This document shows positions 2,841-31,763 of a DNA stretch of 64,000 nt, piece by piece. The stretch's first letter is position 1. Every line of letters begins with the position of its first letter. Origin of the DNA: a virus. Lineage: Duplodnaviria; Caudoviricetes. Made by a program: the position numbers and the translations under genes. The stretch lies in IMG/VR virus record IMGVR_UViG_2636415703_000001, positions 1 through 64,000 of that record. One strand, written 5' to 3'. The notes beneath the pieces are model-generated. The model searched no databases and was not told the DNA's origin. It saw nothing but the letters and a program-made list of their open reading frames with translations.

Positions 2841-3318
2841 GGTTTTTCTCCGGTGATTTAAAGGTGTAGTGGCGGCGCTTGCGGACAGAGTTTTCATAGA
2901 GAGGGACGTCTGTGTAATCCACCAGCCCGCGCTCGATGAGTTTTTTAACGGCCTGCAGGAAAAGGGAATGGCTTACGTCAAACTCCTGGCGGACCTTCCT
3001 GGCGGTAATGTAAGGGCGCTTATCGAGCAGCATCAGAATGCACTCTTCGGTTTTCCCCATTTTCAGCGGCGTCAGCTTGGCTGCATAAGCTGGTGACACT
3101 GCCAAGATGTACTCGTTATCAATGGATCGGGTGATCAGACCATTTTTCTGTAGGTCCAACAGCGTTCCCCGAATGACGTGGGTAGACGTGTCGGGCAGGG
3201 CGCGAGTAAAACGCCGGCGCGTGGCAATTCGTTCATCTTTCAGCAGCAGCAGTACGGCTGAGGCCGTCTCCGGATACCGGGCGCGGAAAATTTTAAGTTT
3301 TGGTAAAAGGTGCTTCAA
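2827..3318 (-). CDS. Putative tandem winged-HTH DNA-binding protein
   Basis: Two repeats ending LQKNGLI and LIERGLV, typical of wHTH. Confidence 0.55.
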   Translation of the reverse strand: MKHLLPKLKIFRARYPETASAVLLLLKDERIATRRRFTRALPDTSTHVIRGTLLDLQKNGLITRSIDNEYILAVSPAYAAKLTPLKMGKTEECILMLLDKRPYITARKVRQEFDVSHSLFLQAVKKLIERGLVDYTDVPLYENSVRKRRHYTFKSPEKNHATS

Positions 3319-4223: not shown

Positions 4224-4304
4224 GATGCGGGATGGCCTGAATTGTGGGGGATAAATGATGGCGTTACAATTATTATTTTTTTAGATTTAAATAAATCTAT
4301 TCCT

Positions 4305-5336
4305 CTATTCTCCGTCCAGTATTCCTGACATTTTTCCTTTCTGACTTTCAGAGCGGCGAAGGTAACGCATTACCGTTTTTGGATCCTGCCAGGTGCCTTC
4401 CTGCATGATTTGAGTAATTGTCGCGTCACGCTCGGCCATGTCCATCGCGGCACCCACGCGGGCGCTATGACCTGACCACTTGCTGTAGCGGCCTTTGTTG
4501 TCCTGTACCGGGTCTTTACCCAGCAGATCCCAAGCGTCCTTGAAAATCTTCTCGGTCGCCGGTGCCGACATTGGCTTTTCAGACACCCCAGCTGTGTTGT
4601 TATGGCGGACAGGCCCGAAAACCATCGCGTCCGGATGATGAATCAGCCCGGAAAGGTCCAGCCAGTGCAGTAGATGACCCGCAGCAGCGCGGCTAAGGTG
4701 CTTTATGACGCCCGCGGCCGTCACCATTGTTTTGGTATGGGACAGGTTGATCACCACATGGCCACTGTCGCTGATATCCAGGTCACGCACCCGGATGCGG
4801 CTGAGTTCAGACATACGGCACAGGGTGTTATAGGCGATAAACAGGAATGCCAGGTTGCGCTGATCGGTCAGCCGGTCGGAGCGGCCCATGAGGTGCGAAA
4901 GCAGCTGCAGGTCTGGCAGACGGAACGGCACAGCTTGGCCGGTGCGTTCACCCTGTAAAACTGCCTCGCGCCGGATGCGCTTCATGGAGCGCTTCAGATC
5001 CACGCTTCCCCGGAGGTCCGGCAGGCCACTTTCCCGGCACAGCATGTTCATCATGGCGTAGTGCTTGTCGATGGTGCTCGATGCCAGGCCGCTTTCTGCC
5101 ATATCCAGGAAGTACTCCCGCGCCAGTTCCGGGTCGATCGGCAGATAGCCTACGTCACGCTCGTTACACCAGAAGGCCCAGCGCCGGATTACGGATAACA
5201 GGTCGCGAAAAGTATTCTCGGAATAAGCGGCCTTATCTGCGATGAAACGGCGCAGATTATTAGCAATATCTTCCGGCGTTAATTGCGTTAATTCTGCCGG
5301 GAGTGCGCCGGTCTTTATTTGAGCCAGACTTTTCAT
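4305..5336 (-). CDS. cre: Cre-family tyrosine recombinase (Dre/Panto-like)
   Basis: 343 aa. Catalytic R (LCRMSEL), K (HTKT), HxxR (GHSARVG), W (GTW), Y (MRY); YSENTFRDL and GQAVPF match Cre. Confidence 0.95.
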   Translation of the reverse strand: MKSLAQIKTGALPAELTQLTPEDIANNLRRFIADKAAYSENTFRDLLSVIRRWAFWCNERDVGYLPIDPELAREYFLDMAESGLASSTIDKHYAMMNMLCRESGLPDLRGSVDLKRSMKRIRREAVLQGERTGQAVPFRLPDLQLLSHLMGRSDRLTDQRNLAFLFIAYNTLCRMSELSRIRVRDLDISDSGHVVINLSHTKTMVTAAGVIKHLSRAAAGHLLHWLDLSGLIHHPDAMVFGPVRHNNTAGVSEKPMSAPATEKIFKDAWDLLGKDPVQDNKGRYSKWSGHSARVGAAMDMAERDATITQIMQEGTWQDPKTVMRYLRRSESQKGKMSGILDGE

Positions 5337-8665: not shown

Positions 8666-9939
8666 CAGGCGTCATCCTCACCAGGTATGACGTCTATCTG
8701 AGGTATATCGTCGTCATCGTCGCCGTAAAGATCCGCCGTGGCCATAAAGTCAAAGTTGCCAGTGAGATTGCCCTCACCCGCTGTTTCGCCGGCGCGGTTC
8801 TCACCGTCCGCCTGCACGTCACCAAATCCGCCGCCATCCACCAGCGCCGCGACCGCTGCGCGCCGTTCCTCAACAAAGGCCGCGCTGGTGGCCTGCTGTT
8901 CGCGGAACTTCCGCGCATCCCGGTCCAGCTGCTCTTCACTGACCGCCCCGGATTCATCAACTGGTGGCTCGGCGTTCTTGAGCTCGTTCTCAAGGCGTCG
9001 GGACAGCGACTCCGGCAGCTTTATGCCATGCCGCTCGATGTACTCGGCCGTCTCCAGTAAGTCCCAGTCATTTTCCTCGCGCAGCTGGTAGGCACGGCTA
9101 ATCACCTCGCCGGCGTTGTGCGTCAGAGCATGCTTCTCATTATCGCGCCGGTTCTTATCGGTGCCGCTGGCGATCGCCGCCACCCGCGTAGCGTGGTCGT
9201 TGACCAGATAACCAACCTCGATCATCAGCTTGGTCATCTTCAGGAGGGGGTGCGGCCCGCCGCCGCCCTCGTCGTCACCCTTTTTGCCGCCGTTTTCCAG
9301 GTTGCTGGCTTCCAGCTCAAATAGCTCGACCGCCCGCGCCGTAGTACGCTTCAGCAGGTCCATGTGGGCCAGCGAGTCAAACAGCACTGTTATGGCACTG
9401 GCTTCCACGCCCTCGCCCAGCACCTCTAAAGCCGATTCGTAATCCTCCGGCCGCGGGTAGCCGCGCCGGTTTGCCACCAGCTTAGTTTCATGGCCTTCTT
9501 CAAACGGTTTGCCCTCTCCGCGAGGCTTCGGGATGTGCTTCGGGCGCCCGGAATCCTGATCACCAGCATTTATGATCTTTTTGGCATGTGAAGCATTGGG
9601 CTTTTTCTTCGCGCCAGGCTGCGCTGCTGCGTCAGCGCGTGGTTCCAGCACTCCCTCTAAAGCCGCGCTGTGCCTGACTTTGCGCCCATTCCTGCGGATG
9701 ATCAGGTCTTCTCTGCTGGCGTGATCATTGTGATGATCAGAAGCGTGATCACTGGAATGATCATGATTGTGATCACCGGCCTGATCTCGCATTGCGGCCA
9801 GCGCTTTGCCGTTCAGCTCTCGGCGTGCGGTGTTAAACGGCAGACCGTAGTGCTCACAGTACTCTTTGACGGTTATCCCGTTCTGCGCCTTCTGCTCGAT
9901 GAAGGCTTTTCTGTGGTCATCCCAGTTAACTTTGGACAT
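8665..9939 (-). CDS. pacA: Terminase small (pac-recognition) subunit
   Basis: Upstream of pacB; N-terminal HTH; DH repeats encoded by TGATCA array. Confidence 0.88.
   Translation of the reverse strand: MSKVNWDDHRKAFIEQKAQNGITVKEYCEHYGLPFNTARRELNGKALAAMRDQAGDHNHDHSSDHASDHHNDHASREDLIIRRNGRKVRHSAALEGVLEPRADAAAQPGAKKKPNASHAKKIINAGDQDSGRPKHIPKPRGEGKPFEEGHETKLVANRRGYPRPEDYESALEVLGEGVEASAITVLFDSLAHMDLLKRTTARAVELFELEASNLENGGKKGDDEGGGGPHPLLKMTKLMIEVGYLVNDHATRVAAIASGTDKNRRDNEKHALTHNAGEVISRAYQLREENDWDLLETAEYIERHGIKLPESLSRRLENELKNAEPPVDESGAVSEEQLDRDARKFREQQATSAAFVEERRAAVAALVDGGGFGDVQADGENRAGETAGEGNLTGNFDFMATADLYGDDDDDIPQIDVIPGEDDA
9699..9787. repeat. pac site hexamer array
   Basis: TGATCA at 9699, 9722, 9734, 9746, 9758, 9770 and TGATCT at 9782 (12-bp period) inside pacA, as for P1 pac. 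Confidence 0.8.
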
Positions 9940-12236: not shown

Positions 12237-12784
12237 AGACTGCTCCGCTTTTAATCACTGCAAGCAATTCTAAGGTTTGTATAATCTGCATAAGGAGGAA
12301 TGACGTAAATATCGCCATTATTAGCAGGTATAAACTGGTATTCAGGACAAATCTGGACATGTCGGACGCAGGTCTTTACTGGCTTGTAGTTTTATCTGGG
12401 AATGAAGATCTAAGTCTGTATGTATGGTCCAATACCGTTAATGACACAAAGTAATGCCATTATGTAATTACGTGAGGGTTGGTACTATTGCGATAAACCT
12501 GAATTTTTTCTTAGATTTTAAATCATAAATCTTTGCATGCCGCTGCCAGATGACGGTAGTTATTCAGTTGAACGTGTGTCAGATTTCCTGCTGAAAATTT
12601 TAGAGTAGTTCCTGAACGTTGCAGACTATGAAAGTTACCATGTCACGTCTTAAACATGAGGTTTCCCAGTTAGGGAATTTTGTTTACAGAATACATCATC
12701 AGGCCTTAGATTATTCGGTAAATTAGGCGAGTCCTTTCATAGAAACAAAATTTGCCTGCATCTTAACTGACTAGTATCATAGAT

Positions 12785-13591
12785 ATGCTCAACAATCCCA
12801 TAACATTCTGGCATTTAGTAAGGGGAAATATGTCGCAGAAAAACCGTGTTATTTTCTGGCTTGCAAGAGCCGATCTGCCATATTTTATCGAGCCTCATGA
12901 GTTTTATGTCGCTGAAGCAAAAAAAAGAATCTTATCGCAGTTTTATGATTTAGAAAAAGAAGCGTATGAGAAAGAAAAAGAGTTCCTTATGGCTGCTGAG
13001 GAATACTATCATGATGACCCTTTTGCGGCCTATGATGATGCTCATGATGCAGGAATTAATTATCTATGGTCTCTCAGTGAAATGCAAAACACTGTGCTAC
13101 TGGCATTAACAGCAGGTATGTACCATCAATTCGACAAAAAATTAAGAGAACATACTATAAGGGAGCTAAGTAATTGGTGTAAAAGAGAAATAATTACCCT
13201 AATGGTTTGGGACTTATCCTTCCACAGACTTTGCGAACTACTAGAGTGGATTGGCCTTAAAATTAGTGGAACTAAGTATGGAGAAAGCATAAAGGCCTGC
13301 AACTTGGTAGTGAACGTATACAAACATGGTGATGGTGATGCACATCGAAAACTATCATGCAATCATCCTGAATATTATCCTTACGCAACCGGTTTTCGAC
13401 GCGGAAAAAGCGAACCTAAACATGACGACTTACATGTTTCCGAAGAACAATTTGTAAGTTTTTCTGACTCGATAACATCGTTTTGGAAAGCTGTCCCAGA
13501 GGAATGTTATTACCTTGACCTAAAAGAACCGCCCACATGGTTAGATAAAGTTGTGGGAAAGGTAGAAAAAAAACTCAAAGACAAGGAGTAG
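12785..13591 (+). CDS. AT-rich hypothetical protein, possible degenerate HEPN-like
   Basis: 268 aa, opposite strand to neighbours; helical with LVVNVYKHGDG motif. Confidence 0.6.
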   Translation: MLNNPITFWHLVRGNMSQKNRVIFWLARADLPYFIEPHEFYVAEAKKRILSQFYDLEKEAYEKEKEFLMAAEEYYHDDPFAAYDDAHDAGINYLWSLSEMQNTVLLALTAGMYHQFDKKLREHTIRELSNWCKREIITLMVWDLSFHRLCELLEWIGLKISGTKYGESIKACNLVVNVYKHGDGDAHRKLSCNHPEYYPYATGFRRGKSEPKHDDLHVSEEQFVSFSDSITSFWKAVPEECYYLDLKEPPTWLDKVVGKVEKKLKDKE

Positions 13592-13705
13592 CCAAACCAT
13601 TTGAAGCTTATCATTTAATACATTCAGCTTAATATAATTATTTATATACACCATAAAACCAGAACCTTAAAATAATTTAAGATTAAAATATAGTCACAAG
13701 ATTTT

Positions 13706-14290
13706 TTAAATAAGCCTCCAGTCTGTTGCCAATAAGTCGATAGAAGCAGGAGCCCAGTCGGAAATCGTTTGCTTTTCGGTATCAATGAGCAAAAGCTGGG
13801 GCATCTGAGTTACGGCCACATCCTGGCTGCAATCAAAGTACCGGGCCGGTACGCCGTACATGTCAGATCCGTTAAGTGCTGCGCGTGTCAGCCCTCTGGT
13901 GAGATGTAGATAAACACCCTTCCCCCATGCAGCCCGCGCTACCTTGCAGCCCTCTGACAGCCATAATTGCGCCACGGCCAGCGGCGCATGTTCCTGTCTG
14001 AAGTTCAGTTCGCCTGCATCGATCATCGCCTCATTGCGAAGAATCAGGTCATGCAGCTTAATCAGTGCGGCGCATGCGGCGTAGTTCAGTGTTTTCCCGT
14101 AACCGGTCATTGTCAGGCCGCTTTTGCTAATAATGGCGGCGTAACCTGCATTTGTGGTCTTGGATGTGTCAGTAATGGTGTAACCCAGGCGGGAAATGGT
14201 ATCCAGCAGCGCCATGTAATCGCCTGCATAGTCGGCTTCTGCGTCTGCAATCAGGCTGATAGTCGCGTTTAACTGTTGAGCGGTCATCAT
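13706..14290 (-). CDS. DUF2829/Tad2-like domain protein (TciA-like)
   Basis: C-terminal GCKVARAAWGKG...WAPASIDLLATDW signature. Confidence 0.75.
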   Translation of the reverse strand: MMTAQQLNATISLIADAEADYAGDYMALLDTISRLGYTITDTSKTTNAGYAAIISKSGLTMTGYGKTLNYAACAALIKLHDLILRNEAMIDAGELNFRQEHAPLAVAQLWLSEGCKVARAAWGKGVYLHLTRGLTRAALNGSDMYGVPARYFDCSQDVAVTQMPQLLLIDTEKQTISDWAPASIDLLATDWRLI

Positions 14291-14292
14291 TA

Positions 14293-14541
14293 TTAATAGC
14301 CTCGTTTCTGCTTGCGCTTCTGCGCTGCTTGCCTGCGTTTCTTCTCTGCGGCCCAGTGCTGCTGAGCTTCCGCAATGCTTGTGGCCAAATGACGTATTCC
14401 CTTTTCGATCTCTTCCTGTAGGGGTGGCCTGCTTTCGTCCACCAGTAGCGTTCTCACCTGCGGAACCGGGACGGACGGCGGACGGCGGGCAACCCAGCTG
14501 AGACTCCCCATAATTACGCCCATCAGTGCGATCTTCTTCAT
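14293..14541 (-). CDS. Small basic hypothetical protein
   Basis: MKKIALMG...AAQKRKQKRGY; 2 bp before DUF2829 gene. Confidence 0.5.
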   Translation of the reverse strand: MKKIALMGVIMGSLSWVARRPPSVPVPQVRTLLVDESRPPLQEEIEKGIRHLATSIAEAQQHWAAEKKRRQAAQKRKQKRGY

Positions 14542-14675
14542 GCGTTTTCTCTTCCTGCAGGCGTGCAGAATCCCCGGCAGGTGCCGGTGATTAAAGTTCA
14601 CCTGGTTAAGTCCGGCGTGGGATACGCACGGCGATAATCTGAAGCCTGCGCCGGCGCGTGGCCGGGTGGCTGTAA

Positions 14676-14781
14676 TGGCATTGTGCTGACCGGATTCGAA
14701 CCGGCTACCATCCGTCTGTCCCCATCAGGCCTTACGGCTATTCAATGGAACGGCGGTTGCTTCCGTTAAGCGGCAACACAA
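14676..14781 (-). ncRNA. tRNA-like RNA with greatly extended anticodon arm
   Basis: Acceptor TGTGTTG/CAGCACA, D-like GCTT-AACGG-AAGC, T-arm GCCGG-TTCGAAT-CCGGT, 3' ATGCCA. Confidence 0.6.
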
Positions 14782-14823
14782 CGGTAAAAGCACGTTGCAG
14801 GCGCTCTTACCTGTTGTCCTGTC

Positions 14824-14946
14824 TCAGCATGCCACCAACTGCGCGATAAGCCATTTGTGACCGGCAAACAGTCCTGCATTAAGCAGGCAGTGAAACATGA
14901 CAAACTGCATGGCTCTCATAGTCTTTGTGTAGTTGCTGTCACTCAT
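14824..14946 (-). CDS. Putative 40-aa hydrophobic peptide
   Basis: MSDSNYTKTMRAMQFVMFHCLLNAGLFAGHKWLIAQLVAC; weak SD. Confidence 0.3.
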   Translation of the reverse strand: MSDSNYTKTMRAMQFVMFHCLLNAGLFAGHKWLIAQLVAC

Positions 14947-15295
14947 GCGTTCTGCATCCGGATAAACTGACTGTATGACACTGATGATGCCTGATATGTC
15001 AGGGAAAGCGTTAGTGGTGGCCGGTGCCATACCCGGCAAATAACCTCTTAAGTGACTGGTCAACCTGGTTACTGGCGGCTTTAACCCCTGTGTACGCGAC
15101 TGAAGATGCGGGGGCCAGTCTTGCGATCGCAGCAGCAACTGCGAATGCACCACAACGGAGAGAGCACTGCATTTGACCACCTTACGCCGCGTGTCCCGTA
15201 ACGTTGCCTTTGCGACCTTACAGCTTTGCCGCCAGGGGAAGTTACACAGGGGCAGGCCATATATCCGGCGCAATGCTCTTTCCTGTTGGTGTGAC

Positions 15296-15424
15296 TTATT
15301 TGCGGCGCTTCTGCTTCCTGCCGCCTCTTACCGCCTTGATGAATGTCTCGATGGCATAGATGGCCACCAGCGCATAAATTACAGTGAGAAATGGGTGCTC
15401 TGCAGCAAACTCTGATAACGACAT
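15296..15424 (-). CDS. 42-aa single-TM peptide with basic tail
   Basis: Manual translation MSLSEFAAEHPFLTVIYALVAIYAIETFIKAVRGGRKQKRRK; AAGGA SD. Confidence 0.6.
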   Translation of the reverse strand: MSLSEFAAEHPFLTVIYALVAIYAIETFIKAVRGGRKQKRRK

Positions 15425-16378
15425 ATTGCGTCCTTCGTGGAGGAATGCTGTCTCTTCCAGCAGTCAGAACTAAACGCCCAGGCGCTCAACCCGTGATGGC
15501 AACAACCTATTCGCTGGCTGGTACATTCTGTGTTGACCGGATAACCAAATAGACGAGAAGGAAATAAAACGCCCATGCTCCGCACCCACATGTCCCAAAT
15601 GCCCCACTTTCGGCCACCAGCAGGGATCGCTGGCATATCGTTACTGGCCGGGCTCAATAGTGTTGCTGTGACCGTTTCCCGTTAGCGCGATTGTTCACTG
15701 AGGCGGGACTTAAACCCGCTTTGCTTTCGCAGCCCATCGCTGACCGCCCGTGTTAATTCACAGGCAAGGCTTTCGCCCCGTGGATTCCGTATCCACAACT
15801 CCTACGGTGTGTTAAAGCGATCACCACAACGGCCGAGAACACTGAGCAACCACGCGCCGGGTGCTCATTTAAGTCACCCTACAGTGCCCTCGCCGTTATG
15901 GGCTGGACTTTCCCAGCAGTCACGGCGTGTTGAGGCCTGCCGATACCCTGCCCCGCCACCAGCCAAATTAGCCAGTAAACAGGGCATCGCCTGGTGTTGA
16001 CGTGTAGTGCATGGGAGGCTGGTGCCACCAGCTGTCCGATACGGAATCTACGGACGGGTCATGTAAAGGAATTTGCAAAACGTCAGGTAACGGTTCCGTC
16101 CCGCGTGCGCATAGCCGCATTCCCCCATTTGTGAGCGCGCTGACAGAGGTAATCTTTCGCCAAACGCCAGGTAAAACGACAGAAGCACCAGCACGCTCAC
16201 AAATGGTGATCCCTTACGAGGATCAGGCGGGAACATGTTTAAGCCTCATGGGGCGTTCTATGCGCGGGATTAGTCCATCAACCGCGTTCACTGCCATGAC
16301 AGGAGGGGCTACTTGCCGTTCACCCTACTCATAACACGCCCGGAAAAAGCTAATAACCGAGGGCGGCCCGTTACGAAC

Positions 16379-16451
16379 TGGTGCATGGGGCCTGATTTGA
16401 ACCGGCGGCGGACTCAACACCTTCTGCGTTCGGCCTCTTCGCTACCCATGC
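16379..16451 (-). tRNA. Degenerate tRNA or tRNA mimic with no assignable anticodon
   Basis: Acceptor GCATGGG/CCCATGC plus ACCA, D-arm GCG..CGC, T-arm GCCGG-TTCAAAT-CAGGC; only 19 nt, non-pairing, between D and T arms. Confidence 0.6.
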
Positions 16452-16629
16452 TGAATACTTGCCGGTGCATACCCGGCGCGGACACTTAGGTATCTGGTCA
16501 ACCTGTCCGCTTGCGTCACGTATGAGGTCAGGAAACCTCGCCAGATTTGCAGTGCGTTTGCCTCGCTTGCTAAAGTGTTTTCCCCGTTTCAGCCGTCAGC
16601 ACACCCTGATGCACTCACGGCTGAACCTG

Positions 16630-16655
16630 AAAAAAAGCCCGGAAACTACCGGGCC
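16630..16655 (-). terminator. Intrinsic terminator or attenuator about 70-95 nt after promoter
   Basis: GCCCGG-TAGTTT-CCGGGC-TTTTTTT on minus strand. Confidence 0.7.
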
Positions 16656-16732
16656 TAAAACCCTACTACACACAGCAAAGCCTACTATTATGAATATTGC
16701 ACGGAGCCGTTAAGCCCTTGTCAGCGGGGAGA

Positions 16733-16791
16733 AATGTACACAATGCAGAGTGATGAATCAATGAAAATCTAAGAATCTCCTTAGATTTTCA
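16733..16791 (-). promoter_or_regulatory. Sigma70 promoter with adjacent inverted double operator
   Basis: TTGATT-N17-TACATT; adjacent palindrome TGAAAATCTAAG-AATCTC-CTTAGATTTTCA. Confidence 0.65.
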
Positions 16792-16809
16792 AAGCACATC
16801 GAAGGAGGG

Positions 16810-18099
16810 TTAGCGCCGCTTTATCTTAGGGTTCTTGATGTTCTCGATGTCACCATTCACTTGCGTCCATTTAATGCACCAGCTGTTTATTGCTGCGCGG
16901 ACCTCATTCACTGATACCTCGCTTAGCCCCTTCACTTTCGCCAGCTGGTCAGGCAGTTCGCCACCAGCATCTGCAACAGTCTCATACCCGTCTTTAATCA
17001 GTGCGTTAAGGATGCGTGTCGGTATGGCCAGCTCGGAAACAGGTGCAGCTTTGCCGTCCTGAATGCGCTGGTGAAGACGTGGGAAATCCTGCGCCAGGCG
17101 CTTCATAATCAGTGTGTGCAGCTCGTCATTGATAGTCGTGTCCCACATCGGTTCGAGCTCCGGTAGCAGGCGGAATACAGGGTTTCCCCATATTCCCGGC
17201 ACCACGTCCATAGCCAGCATCATCGCTGTGCGGATCTGTAAATGAAAATCAGCCGTCTCGATCGAGATATCGCGGATACCGTGGAAGACGCTAAGCCCAA
17301 AGTGGAAGTTGTAGATGTAGCAACCCACGTCGCCGGTGCCGTCCGGCAGCTGAAGCAGGAACTGCTGCACGTCTTCCCGGCCATCGTGGAAATCGACGCG
17401 TTCCTTCAGGTGGTTGTAAAGAGCGGTCGTCTTCATCAGGTCATTGGCCGTCGCGGCGCGCTGGCGGCGCTCTTCTCCGACAACCTTATCCGCAATGTTG
17501 AGTTTACTCTGCAGCTCCTGTCGTTTGCTGCTGTCTTTCTTACGATCGGCGCGCATCTGCGAAATGGTTTTGTCACGCTCATTCAGATCACGCGCCAAGC
17601 GCTCAGGATTTTTACGTCGATACTGGGAGTATTCCTGCGTCACTGTGGCAATGGCCAGCTGCGCGGTTGTCAGGGCTGATCTCACTCCCTCCAGCTGGTT
17701 CTCTGCGTTTATCACGCGGTTGTCCGCCTCAAGCACCTGAAGATTAGCCGCCTCGCGTGCCTCTTCGATGGCGTTCTCTGCATCGAGACGGATTTGCGCT
17801 ACTTCACTCTGCAAAGCGGACTGGGCGCTTAGCTGCTGCTGCGCCTGCTCCAGCGTGTCAAGCATCAGGTTGTACGTGTCAGTTTCATGATTAAGGCGCA
17901 TGCCAATATCAATCTGGATCTGCTCCAGCGCGTTCGTGCAGTTATCAAGAAGGCGCTGCTCCAGGTCATCGAGCGTCAGGCGTTTACGGATGGAATTAAG
18001 CTGGCCGTAAGCGGTGACAAAGGCTTGGTGAAGAACTTCGTCATCGACTTTGCATAAAGGGAGATTTTGCAGCTGTTGGAGTGGAGCGAGAGTAGTCAT
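16810..18099 (-). CDS. pmgS: PmgS-like coiled-coil protein with C-terminal alpha-CTD/HhH-like domain
   Basis: LDDLEQRLLDN...NHETDTYN matches a recalled P1 protein of similar length; C-terminal PVSELAIPTRILNAL...KVKGLSEVS. Confidence 0.65.
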   Translation of the reverse strand: MTTLAPLQQLQNLPLCKVDDEVLHQAFVTAYGQLNSIRKRLTLDDLEQRLLDNCTNALEQIQIDIGMRLNHETDTYNLMLDTLEQAQQQLSAQSALQSEVAQIRLDAENAIEEAREAANLQVLEADNRVINAENQLEGVRSALTTAQLAIATVTQEYSQYRRKNPERLARDLNERDKTISQMRADRKKDSSKRQELQSKLNIADKVVGEERRQRAATANDLMKTTALYNHLKERVDFHDGREDVQQFLLQLPDGTGDVGCYIYNFHFGLSVFHGIRDISIETADFHLQIRTAMMLAMDVVPGIWGNPVFRLLPELEPMWDTTINDELHTLIMKRLAQDFPRLHQRIQDGKAAPVSELAIPTRILNALIKDGYETVADAGGELPDQLAKVKGLSEVSVNEVRAAINSWCIKWTQVNGDIENIKNPKIKRR

Positions 18100-18239
18100 A
18101 TTGAGAATCAGATCCGCATGTTATTTGCGAAGAATGATAACTCGAAATTAACCACTGTCTAATATTTTTCTTAGATTTAATTAAATGATTAAGCTGGGTT
18201 GCTGGTGGCGTTGTCTCGGATTCCGCCACCAGCAGAGGA

Positions 18240-18539
18240 TTACAGTAGTTTCAGCGCCGTTACGGCTATGGCGGCGACAACGACAATCATCAGTACATTC
18301 AGCAGTACAGACGGCACTTTAATTTCGCCGGTCTCATACTCTGCCTGCGTCATCCTGCCCAGGTAGCTGTGTGAGATCAGCACTGCGTTTTCGTCAAAGC
18401 TCAGCGTAGCCCGAACGTTCTCCAGCGCCTGGCGAGATATCTGACGTGTGGCCAGCTGCACGACTCCGGATCGCATCTTCCCGTTGTCGCCCATGTAGCA
18501 GACCGTATGGTAGTGGTATGGCTTACCCTGCCCCATCAA
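18240..18539 (-). CDS. Phage protein with C-terminal TM helix
   Basis: SYLGRMT motif, hydrophobic C-terminus; overlaps upstream stop. Confidence 0.6.
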   Translation of the reverse strand: MMGQGKPYHYHTVCYMGDNGKMRSGVVQLATRQISRQALENVRATLSFDENAVLISHSYLGRMTQAEYETGEIKVPSVLLNVLMIVVVAAIAVTALKLL

Positions 18540-19054
18540 CTGATAACTACCCAGTCGCTGACGCGCATATCGTTAATGCTCAGATCGTGTATCTCAACGC
18601 CGCCGTCCGGTCGGGTCAGCATCAGCACATCACAGCCTTCATGCTCCTGCTCCAGCGACACAAAGTATCCCGCCTCCCACGCTTCCCGGCGCATCAGCAA
18701 TTCTGGATCCTCTTTCATTTTCAGCAAGGCGCGGTCATAGCTGCACGTAATGGCACCGATTCCAATTTTGTTCAAACCTTCAATCTGTGCCGTAGTCATG
18801 CGTCCGCGTCCCTCTGTTAATGATTTTCTCAAGATGTAACTGATCCCCTTCACGCCGCCGAAATAGTTCAGCTGGCGGTTACTCATGCCGCTGCGCGACA
18901 TAAGCTCCTGCTTCGGTACTCTGAAAATGCCGACGTCCATAGCCATGTCGGCAAAAACCGAAAGCCCCCGGCCCAAGCCGTCACGCGTCTTTTTACGGCG
19001 CGCATACTGCTCAAAGGTCGGGCATCCGGTAAAAAACTGCGCGTCAAAAAGCAC
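18536..19054 (-). CDS. Protein with C-terminal DUF2829/Tad2-like domain (possible internal start 18799)
   Basis: SYDRALLKMK...MRREAW...NDMRVSDWVV. Confidence 0.6.
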   Translation of the reverse strand: MLFDAQFFTGCPTFEQYARRKKTRDGLGRGLSVFADMAMDVGIFRVPKQELMSRSGMSNRQLNYFGGVKGISYILRKSLTEGRGRMTTAQIEGLNKIGIGAITCSYDRALLKMKEDPELLMRREAWEAGYFVSLEQEHEGCDVLMLTRPDGGVEIHDLSINDMRVSDWVVIS

Positions 19055-31427: not shown

Positions 31428-31479
31428 GAAATGCTCCCTGTGCTTTGAGACGCGTCACAACAAGAGGTTCCAATCTCCG

Positions 31480-31560
31480 GGTGGTGACGTTGACAGGGTT
31501 GGAACTACCGGCGCACAAGAAAACCGGCCTACCCGAAGGTAGCCCCGCCAACGCCACCAT
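31480..31560 (-). ncRNA. c4: C4-type antisense RNA with a1/b1 and a2/b2 targets
   Basis: Cloverleaf GGTGGCGTTGGCGGGG-CTACC TTCG GGTAG-GCCGG TTTTCTTGTGCG CCGGT-AGTTCCAA-CCCTGTCAACGTCACC; complementary TTGGAAC loops near 31467 and 31632. Confidence 0.8.
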
Positions 31561-31763
31561 AGATACGCCTGGTTTTTTCCAGACGTGGTAGCGCCGAAGG
31601 CACTGAGTGCCTGTTCTTATGCTTCAGCAGGGTTCCAATCCTGACCGCTATACTCACGCGGCGCGGACACTATAGCCACCATGTTGATAAATTCAATATG
31701 TCTTATGTGAAATTATCCACTGGTCATTAGATCCAGACGCGGGTGAAGATTAACTAACCTCAT

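Follow-up and report, generated by a model that had tools for sequence, protein, structure and literature searches.

We analysed a 64,000-nt window (positions 1 to 64,000 of IMGVR_UViG_2636415703_000001) that is part of a 94,142-base virus record, a Pantoea P1-like phage-plasmid. The subject of this report is a minus-strand RNA island at 14545-16791 of the window, which follows a PmgS homologue and precedes a small open reading frame (ORF) and a Tad2-like gene. Comparison with relatives (given below by handles such as L001) suggested that this island is probably the local form of an accessory RNA island, other forms of which are the leader of the P1 ban operon and the part of Qin dicBF that does not encode protein. 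Loci of this kind are known but have received little study; the novelty lies in a 174-nt structured motif and in tRNA derivatives that lack an anticodon and are retained by selection. The island would be a series of minus-strand RNA modules, each folding on its own, which phages rearrange, acquire and drop as cassettes.

Homology to the P1 ban leader and Qin dicBF

The P1 record (AF234172) annotates a divalent C1 operator, Obanab, over P1ban/P2ban, a 'dicF-like region', tRNA-Asn and tRNA-Thr, and then tciA (TerB-like), tciB, tciC, trnI and ban. BLAST searches with this leader matched its UUGACCA-loop hairpin (P1 12801-12834) to L010 and its 72-nt module to L010 and L009. The 133-nt P1 module matched L003 and, over 49 nt at 73% identity, window 15121-15169 (P1 13805-13850), and the 126-nt module (14079-14205) matched L008 and, over 26 nt at 92%, window 16100-16125. 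In E. coli K-12, DicF lies in the 570-nt ydfC-dicB spacer, flanked immediately on its 5' side by the module-3 hairpin and on its 3' side by a stem-closed module. The module 3 region of L010 matched Qin (L045) 4283-4350, and the Qin stem-closed module matched window 16098-16125 over 28 nt at 86%. Module 3a of the island is the counterpart of the P1 'dicF-like region' and of the stretch just upstream of E. coli DicF. Five copies of the 16011-16128-type module shared a closing stem that covaries, a conserved AAUGCGGCU..GCGCA hairpin and, beside the 3' strand, a hairpin with a GGCAC loop, in a comparison of five good rows from which the misaligned L002 and L010 rows were left out. The P1 and Qin counterparts of this module share GGUGAAU and CACCGGGAGGCACCCGGCACC with the consensus of the small RNA STnc100.

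The shared architecture goes beyond single modules. The P1 leader (about 2.6 kb) has a repressor operator at its promoter, and the island has a candidate operator beside a candidate promoter. Both are mostly untranslated, and they share the UUGACCA-loop hairpin, stem-closed modules opening with (C)CGUUGYGGUG and the TciC peptide; TerB/TciA and TciB are encoded in close relatives. In both, tci and tRNA genes stand in one unit, of which the window holds only tciC and tRNA derivatives, while tRNAs occur in L008 and L010. Unlike the P1 leader, the island lies after a pmgS homologue and before a Tad2-like gene next to lpa/pacA, not before ban; it has anticodon-less derivatives instead of true tRNAs, lacks a P1-type C1 operator and contains the 174-nt motif, which is missing from P1. 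Qin dicBF is an early-left-type, repressor-controlled operon and, like the island, has a module-3 hairpin and a downstream stem-closed module. Read 5' to 3', the Qin order is module 3, DicF and STnc100-like module, whereas the island has module 3, tRNA derivative, 174-nt motif, long hairpin and STnc100-like module, so that three elements stand in the place of DicF.

In Qin, DicF is cut from the polycistronic dicBp transcript, giving a 190-nt form with an RNase III 5' end and a 53-nt form made by RNase E, as reported in a preprint (10.1101/2023.04.14.536235). By its length, the 190-nt species would include the module 3 counterpart. Another preprint treats STnc100 and PasD as related prophage base-pairing small RNAs. 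For the island, we propose that transcription would start at a weak promoter abutting an operator-like palindrome, or would arrive by read-through from the pmgS-like gene upstream. Host RNase III would then cleave the transcript at hairpins of 17-23 bp and RNase P at the tRNA-shaped units, with further cuts by RNase E. The products would be stable small RNAs acting in trans on functions of the host or of competitors, in the manner of DicF and STnc100/PasD, and read-through would serve tciC, the small ORF and the Tad2-like gene as well. The earlier note on this DNA had claimed an operator-controlled, processed polycistronic RNA; the architecture fits this by homology to P1 ban and Qin dicBF, but the promoter is weak. 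Species 1 and 2 of the T4 tRNA cluster are stable RNAs of unknown function, and P1/P7 C4 RNA and P4 CI RNA are processed by RNase P. The island units would resemble them in being non-decoding, co-transcribed with or shaped like tRNAs, and matured by tRNA enzymes; they differ in that no sequence relation was seen and in that processing of the island is something we infer.

Two annotations overlap modules of this kind. In P1 (L044), plp and upl (13473-14042, minus strand) lie opposite plus-strand RNA modules at 13572-13643 and 13786-13918 with conserved counterparts in elements of E. coli, Serratia and Enterobacter, and these two coding sequences may be over-annotations. In L014, a 135-aa ORF at 9013-9420, without a Pfam family, overlaps a 127-nt tRNA-like gene (39.3 bits) together with a DicF-like stretch and the next module; this stretch has 71% identity over 201 nt to E. 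coli dicF and the following module, below the DicF gathering score. The ORF is probably not a gene.

Coding status, constraint and fold of the island

Both strands of 14545-16791 were non-coding, with the exception of one 42-aa TciC-like ORF. All ORFs of at least 50 aa in 14600-16800 were projected onto 13 homologues with 76-99% nucleotide identity, and they showed stops, frameshifts or partial presence; all were open only in L030, a near-identical relative (97-100% identity). Control genes (the Tad2-like gene, the small ORF at 14293-14601 and the pmgS-like gene) stayed open in close relatives, and in the most diverged group blastn gap placement gave them apparent frameshifts and, once (L002), apparent stops. 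A protein-coding reading of the island was rejected, as no ORF of at least 50 aa survives in relatives; the 149-aa ORF at 14824-15273 matched no Pfam family. Conservation was patchy, with islands of 99-100% identity amid variable stretches and frequent indels of 1-2 nt, which is not a coding pattern. The sequence observations of the earlier note held for the most part. The note had described a gene-poor stretch with two credible peptides of about 40 aa, leading into a Tad2-like gene. Its gene-poor character was borne out, with no conserved coding signal beyond the TciC-like ORF in the 13 homologues. This ORF was intact in 7 of 7 covering homologues (one with alignment gaps but no stop); a 37-aa ORF at 14598-14711 had a stop in 5 of 10 covering homologues. 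The region does lead to the Tad2-like gene, with a small ORF standing between the gene and the island; this small ORF was open in all five covering homologues, is annotated in L001 and matched no Pfam family.

The island is under stronger sequence constraint than the neighbouring protein genes. Block 15659-16686 had 93.3% identity to L001 and 80.1% to L002, compared with 83.1-85.3% and 70.4-71.1%, respectively, for the flanking gene blocks.

A consensus fold was computed from 13 homologues of 15656-16700, with six column shuffles as control. The minus strand scored -616.8 and the plus strand -564.3, compared with -444 to -479 for the shuffles, and the fold contained 23 covarying pairs, compared with 10-16. 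Variable pairs comprised 276 G-U and 40 A-C cells in the minus reading versus 134 and 85 in the plus reading. In these models the fold signal of the island is that of the minus strand. When single sequences were folded, the long hairpins (z -5.5 and -5.9) and module 3a (z -2.8) alone clearly exceeded chance; z was -1.4 to -1.9 for the tRNA-shaped units and -0.4 to -1.1 for two stem-closed modules. Two longer-range contacts were discarded. The 16-nt complementarity of a candidate kissing loop (15780-15796 with 16038-16048) is real and was not supported by covariation, because the L002 group has a 2-nt loop deletion and substitutions, read by eye, without matching changes at 16038-16048. Helices pairing 16300-16337 with 16002-16034 in the 13-sequence fold conflict with the structure of the 174-nt motif in a wider alignment, and their columns never vary.

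tRNA derivatives and the 174-nt motif

Judged by sequence, two units of the island are tRNA derivatives that keep the acceptor, D and T arms and lack the anticodon loop. The unit at 14681-14780 aligned to all 71 positions of the Rfam tRNA model, with acceptor, D and T arms paired, and had 39 nt in the place of the anticodon arm where the model has 9. It scored 26 bits, under the gathering score of 29 (RF00005), and homologues scored above it (L002, 45.9 bits; L006, 45.1; L003, 43.3; L014, 39.3). Among 11 homologues, five of its 34 predicted pairs changed on both sides, and these five all lie in the long arm. Other tRNA-shaped genes with a long arm, 99-127 nt in total length, also passed the gathering score in Pantoea CCBC3-3-1, in Serratia (with a 69-nt insert) and in a lambdoid prophage, and at the syntenic place of an E. 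coli plasmid RefSeq annotates a 129-nt 'tRNA-Met'.

The unit at 16379-16451 has a perfect 7-bp acceptor stem with three covarying pairs and none of 91 cells unpaired. Compared with the 86-nt tRNA of E. coli/Leclercia plasmids, it lacks 12 nt of the anticodon-arm region. A second allele, found in six relatives, differs in acceptor sequence with compensation on both strands, and has a textbook D arm and likewise no anticodon arm. The unit had no Rfam tRNA match at E up to 10, and ARAGORN found no tRNA in the window; the L001 and L013 copies were called tRNA-Phe by ARAGORN with the anticodon at the odd position 28. An anticodon stem with a 7-nt loop was missing from both units. The earlier note had counted six to seven tRNA-like elements, described as a T-arm-like hairpin on an acceptor-like stem (for one of them, the hairpin alone). 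Two of these are tRNA-derived by a tool: 14676-14781, which aligns to the Rfam model, and 16379-16451, which has an acceptor stem and an encoded ACCA. The others are not, and reading an acceptor stem and T arm into modules without tRNA ancestry is an analogy.

Two further observations concern tRNA-related elements of relatives. PSNIH1-type relatives carry an 84-nt tRNA with anticodon UUA ('tRNA-Stop' by ARAGORN; L002 5126-5209, L019 2765-2848, L026 6031-6114 and L034 1334-1417), inserted at the junction corresponding to 15650-15660 and scoring 50.2 bits with the Rfam tRNA model in L002; it is possibly an ochre suppressor or another non-decoding tRNA. A Serratia plasmid (NZ_CP074146.1, L003) contains a solitary CRISPR-DR4 repeat at 3197-3224 (minus strand; 41.6 bits versus a gathering score of 35), about 0.9 kb from its long-armed tRNA-like gene and in the island-equivalent region. 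Published RNA anti-CRISPRs resemble solitary CRISPR repeats, and the Serratia repeat may be of this type.

The 174-nt motif starts at the base after the CCA of the second tRNA derivative, and the same tRNA/motif junction was found in L028, there after a true tRNA(CAT). The exact core pattern occurred in 26 IMG/VR stretches and five species genomes (two of Pantoea and one each of Enterobacter, Citrobacter and Pectobacterium), and a covariance model of the motif found exactly one copy in each of 35 sources searched. Across 24 distinct rows, 98.8% of cells were paired, compared with 94.4 ± 0.5 in shuffles, and the covariation score was 0.188 compared with 0.099; none of 500 shuffles reached either value. 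The core was almost invariant, at paired and unpaired positions alike. The motif matched no Rfam family at E up to 10, a threshold at which the scan of the island region returned five chance-level matches; the sole Rfam match at gathering score was a C4 antisense RNA at window 31477-31564. The covariance model found nothing in HK022, P1, Qin, L003 or L006.

In three lambdoid contexts (L009, L014 and L028), the motif lies between a cI-like repressor gene and early-left genes. L009 has a 10/12 promoter about 100 nt upstream of the motif and terminator-like sites following on the same strand, and L014 has a 288-aa ORF between the motif and a promoter-like site. The lambdoid relatives place the motif in the same early-left leader position as the HK022 put RNAs. 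Unlike put, the motif is more than twice as long, its predicted fold differs, and no similarity was detected by sequence or model. Identity with put RNA was rejected, as comparison of models and words with the putL/putR region found no homology. Words shared with putL were not significant, apart from a single 10-mer of the Pantoea variant (at k=8, reached by 5 of 1000 shuffles); this 10-mer is missing from the L008, L009 and L014 variants, and the predicted fold pairs its GGC, unlike put. A likeness of UGAACGGCAA and CAUAGA..UUAAAC to put, seen by eye, was dropped as evidence of homology. Downstream of the motif, the early-left leader of the E. coli prophage L009 (2990-3700, minus strand) contains GGAAAGACC six times, mostly at the ends of short hairpins.

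Cassettes, transcription and competing explanations

The remaining features of the island and its surroundings are collected in Table 1.

Table 1. Features of the RNA island and adjacent genes, in window coordinates
Feature	Position	Strand	Basis or remark
Tad2-like (DUF2829) gene	13706-14290	-	Pfam PF11195, E 3.6e-10
Small ORF	14293-14541	-	82 aa from ATG; 102 aa from GTG at 14601; first protein gene past the island
tRNA-shaped RNA, anticodon arm replaced by a roughly 50-nt helix capped by GUAA	14681-14780	-	Rfam tRNA alignment
Stem-closed module opening with CCGUUGUGGUG	15014-15158	-	z -1.1; second module 3 copy at 15020-15075
Module 1, folded element	15148-15280	-	9 of 45 predicted pairs covary, only 4 sequences
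TciC homologue, 42-aa membrane peptide	15296-15424	-	33% identity to P1 TciC, E 2e-7
Variable segment without supported structure	15437-15660	-	Cargo-gene insertion place in relatives
Stem-closed multi-hairpin module opening with CCGUUGUGGUG	15668-15832	-	Contains 15695-15753
Two long hairpins, 15949-15986 (17 bp) and 15825-15900 (20 bp), and a small one, 15902-15917	15825-15986	-	13-homologue fold
Stem-closed module	16011-16128	-	z -0.44; hairpin beside 3' strand; homologue support
Long hairpin, 17-bp base and variable top	16125-16206	-	z -5.5; candidate RNase III site
Structured RNA motif, 174 nt, near-invariant core	16206-16379	-	Starts at base after CCA
Anticodon-less tRNA derivative ending in encoded ACCA	16379-16451	-	Acceptor, D and T arms
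Module 3a: UUGACCAG-loop hairpin, then GCCGG hairpin	16453-16517	-	z -2.8; 80% identity to L005, L010
Small hairpin	16524-16539	-	Covariation in 4 of 5 pairs (13 homologues)
Long hairpin, 23 predicted pairs	16578-16634	-	z -5.92, 0 of 200 shuffles as good; candidate RNase III site
Conserved UUGCUGUGUGUAGU, then intrinsic terminator (8-bp stem and U run)	16635-16676	-	Same word and terminator in L010, L009
Candidate weak sigma-70 promoter TTGATT-N17-TACATT	16733-16761	-	Read by eye; abuts palindrome
Perfect palindrome TGAAAATCTAAG-N6-CTTAGATTTTCA	16762-16791		Candidate operator, or possibly weak hairpin
PmgS homologue, 429 aa	16810-18099	-	Full-length versus P1 PmgS, 22% identity, E 9e-20

The long imperfect stems described in the earlier note were recovered, both in the two hairpins with strongly negative z (16125-16206 and 16578-16634) and in the 17- and 20-bp hairpins. 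Hairpin 16578-16634 had one covarying and three one-sided pairs (8 of 299 cells unpaired), 16125-16206 one covarying pair (1 of 221), and the 20-bp hairpin at 15825-15900 two covarying and six one-sided pairs (4 of 260); module 3a showed compensatory stem changes, read by eye. Among the other elements that the note had proposed, 15014-15153 and 16011-16128 stood as stem-closed modules, each with a hairpin beside the 3' strand, by comparison of homologues, but single-sequence folding gave them a z of only -1.1 and -0.44. Element 15695-15753 turned out to be part of a larger module, and 15437-15607 was not supported, with a z of +1.35 and the segment missing in L012 and L022. The module at 15014-15158 was nearly invariant even in an otherwise 76%-identical group. 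Module 1 was found among close relatives only in this phage and L030, and also in the Serratia and Pantoea CCBC3-3-1 plasmids.

Gains and losses followed module boundaries. L021 lacks 14785-15815, L012 and L022 lack 15440-15656, and most relatives lack 15170-15270; the indel junctions at 14785, 15169/15271, 15440/15656 and 15815 coincide with module edges. TerB and DUF3927 genes, which occupy the tciA and tciB positions, are inserted at about 15655 in L001, and a serine protease gene or the 84-nt tRNA(tta) stands there in the L002 group. Relative to the window, L005/L010 carry module 3 and the 174-nt motif in the opposite order. The exact word CCGTTGTGKTG occurs three times in the window (about 0.06 expected), each time at the 5' edge of an island module and on the minus strand, and it likewise opens the tRNA-shaped genes of L003 and L014. 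Closing helices extend into this word (10 pairs in the 14681-14780 fold), indicating closing stems longer than a 7-bp acceptor stem.

At the start of the unit, the palindromic double operator claimed earlier is a real palindrome, with arms of 12 nt each (16762-16773 and 16780-16791) that are 100% complementary; its operator role is that of a candidate. The arms were kept in L001 and L030 while the spacer varied, and L002 has no palindrome. Five related palindromes with two to three mismatches lie elsewhere in the 94-kb genome, giving six sites in total versus two for a reversed control pattern. Palindromes of the form AATCTAAR-N6-YTTAGATT at genome positions 12496-12517, 18156-18177, 70332-70353 and 77325-77346 lie in AT-rich or intergenic DNA, one of them just upstream of the pmgS homologue. 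Palindromes of this type are candidate operators of this phage's repressor, unlike the P1 C1 operator, whose consensus gave no match in the window at up to three mismatches. Downstream of the candidate promoter, TGTACATT.C...C.CGCTG was invariant in five of five aligned relatives. In L001, L030 and L019, the place of window about 16686-16704 contains some 75 additional bases and, within them, a second intrinsic terminator; the window has lost this segment.

The C-terminus of the PmgS homologue contains an RNA-polymerase alpha-CTD-like segment (Pfam E 5.2e-6), and a PmgS homologue lies directly upstream of the RNA island in every phage-plasmid relative seen. Upstream of the pmgS homologue, a 172-aa ORF (window 18536-19054, minus strand) gave a further Tad2-like match that is weaker (E 8.4e-4) and, at 20.3 bits, falls short of the Pfam cut-off of 25. 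ParM, Lpa, PacA and VRR-NUC genes surround the equivalent region in relatives. The nearest records, 6 from the near search and 13 from the distant one, were Pantoea plasmids of the non-mobilizable type, 87-95 kb long, and the near and distant searches of 50,697 sequenced phage records found no match to the stretch. Of the 22 sequencing runs listed for the stretch, none held half of its words; run X1 is probably DNA, and X18 consists of low-depth pieces of uncertain nature. A literature search without most subscription journals found no paper describing the tRNA derivatives of the island or the 174-nt motif.

Several results weigh against the island being the local version of the P1 and Qin RNA island or against its proposed expression. 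The direct matches between the window and P1 or Qin cover just 26-49 nt, and most of the connection is made via intermediate relatives, the stronger P1 links through L003, L008, L010 and L014. DicF (RF00039) had no match in the window at E up to 10. STnc100 (RF02076) scored 33.4 bits on the P1 counterpart of 16011-16128 and 34.4 bits on that of Qin, both below the gathering score of 47, and gave no match to the window copy. In the 174-nt motif, only 5 of 24 pairs changed on both sides, a count reached by 106 of 500 shuffles, and pair-type diversity was below the shuffle mean; at one mismatch, the count of CCGTTGTGKTG was not above chance (reached by 34 of 100 shuffles). The sigma-70 promoter claimed in the earlier note was not upheld: the candidate fits 8 of 12 positions, and a sigma-70 scan of 14200-16900 found none. 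About 70-90 nt past the proposed start stands an intrinsic terminator, so that RNA polymerase would have to read through it, or start at another promoter, to transcribe the island. Two RNA-labelled runs (X6 and X9) held the stretch on a single 98,191-base whole-plasmid contig, which is uninformative on transcription.

Four other explanations were weighed against this background. The least unlikely of them, which we hold tentatively and with low expectation, is that temperate enterobacterial phages share a pool of mobile RNA cassettes in which a tRNA frame without anticodon, or a tRNA-like closing stem opening with CCGUUGUGGUG, serves as scaffold, the 174-nt motif represents a new class of polymerase- or protein-binding early-leader RNA, and some cassettes act against immunity or acceptor-end toxins. 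Host tRNA-processing enzymes would excise and stabilise the scaffold, which would present a variable functional RNA such as the long arm of 14681-14780, the 69-nt Serratia insert or the minihelix with CCA. Somewhat more doubtful is the RNA counter-defence cassette of the earlier note, in which tRNA-shaped and stem-closed RNAs would act early as decoys or sponges for tRNA-binding or tRNA-cutting host defence proteins, or for other immune effectors, alongside the Tad2-like sponge gene. The island does lead into that gene, its tRNA derivatives are selectively kept though unable to decode, accessory cargo sits at its junctions, and the solitary CRISPR-DR4 repeat of the Serratia relative lies in the equivalent region. 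In a CRISPR interference (CRISPRi) screen (PMC10695390), the homologous P1 genes trnT, plp, upl, tciABC, trnI and ban score non-essential, which accords with accessory functions. No defence-related partner was identified for the island, however, and the related RNAs with known roles, DicF and STnc100/PasD, are reported to be base-pairing regulators rather than decoys. A decoy role against anticodon nucleases specifically is unlikely, because both tRNA-derived units lack the stem-loop that such nucleases recognise; only enzymes of the acceptor stem or elbow could be decoyed.

We consider it more improbable again that the island is a cis-acting leader, with the 174-nt motif as a polymerase- or protein-binding processivity RNA like HK022 put that carries polymerase past terminators and Rho sites, and the other modules as mainly processing or stability signals. 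In an enterobacterium, an untranslated RNA of 2 kb has to be protected from Rho, which speaks for such a role, as do the recurrence of the motif between cI-like and early-left genes in three independent lambdoid contexts, the promoter and terminator-like sites around it in L009, and a core that is near-invariant whether paired or not, as expected of a binding surface. Yet the covariance model found no HK022 match, the putL words were not significant beyond the one 10-mer, whose GGC is paired in the predicted structure, the 288-aa ORF of L014 parts the motif from the promoter-like site, and in the window the clearest terminator precedes the motif instead of following it. Very improbable, and the last in rank, is a decaying tRNA cluster, in which pseudo-tRNAs and neutral spacer would be what is left of a P1-like ancestor's tRNA/tci region. 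In relatives the syntenic place is occupied by true tRNAs, ARAGORN finds none in the window, 16379-16451 has a T-stem mismatch that L001 lacks, and 15437-15660 is unstructured and dispensable. Decay is, however, at odds with an island more conserved than adjacent protein genes, with compensatory changes in the acceptor stem and the long arm, with two alleles of 16379-16451 that both lack an anticodon arm and keep a perfect acceptor stem and CCA, and with the recurrence of long-armed tRNA-shaped genes in Serratia, other Pantoea, E. coli plasmids and a lambdoid prophage.

Annotations of the P1 ban leader and the dicBF spacer go back decades, yet the RNAs of both, other than DicF, are without a known role. 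These results indicate that the same kind of module is under strong constraint across P1-like phage-plasmids and lambdoid prophages. They also flag likely over-annotation, as P1 plp and upl and the L014 ORF overlap conserved RNA modules. The island of this Pantoea phage-plasmid offers small, concrete targets: tRNA genes that have the shape but do not decode, and a near-invariant motif outside Rfam.

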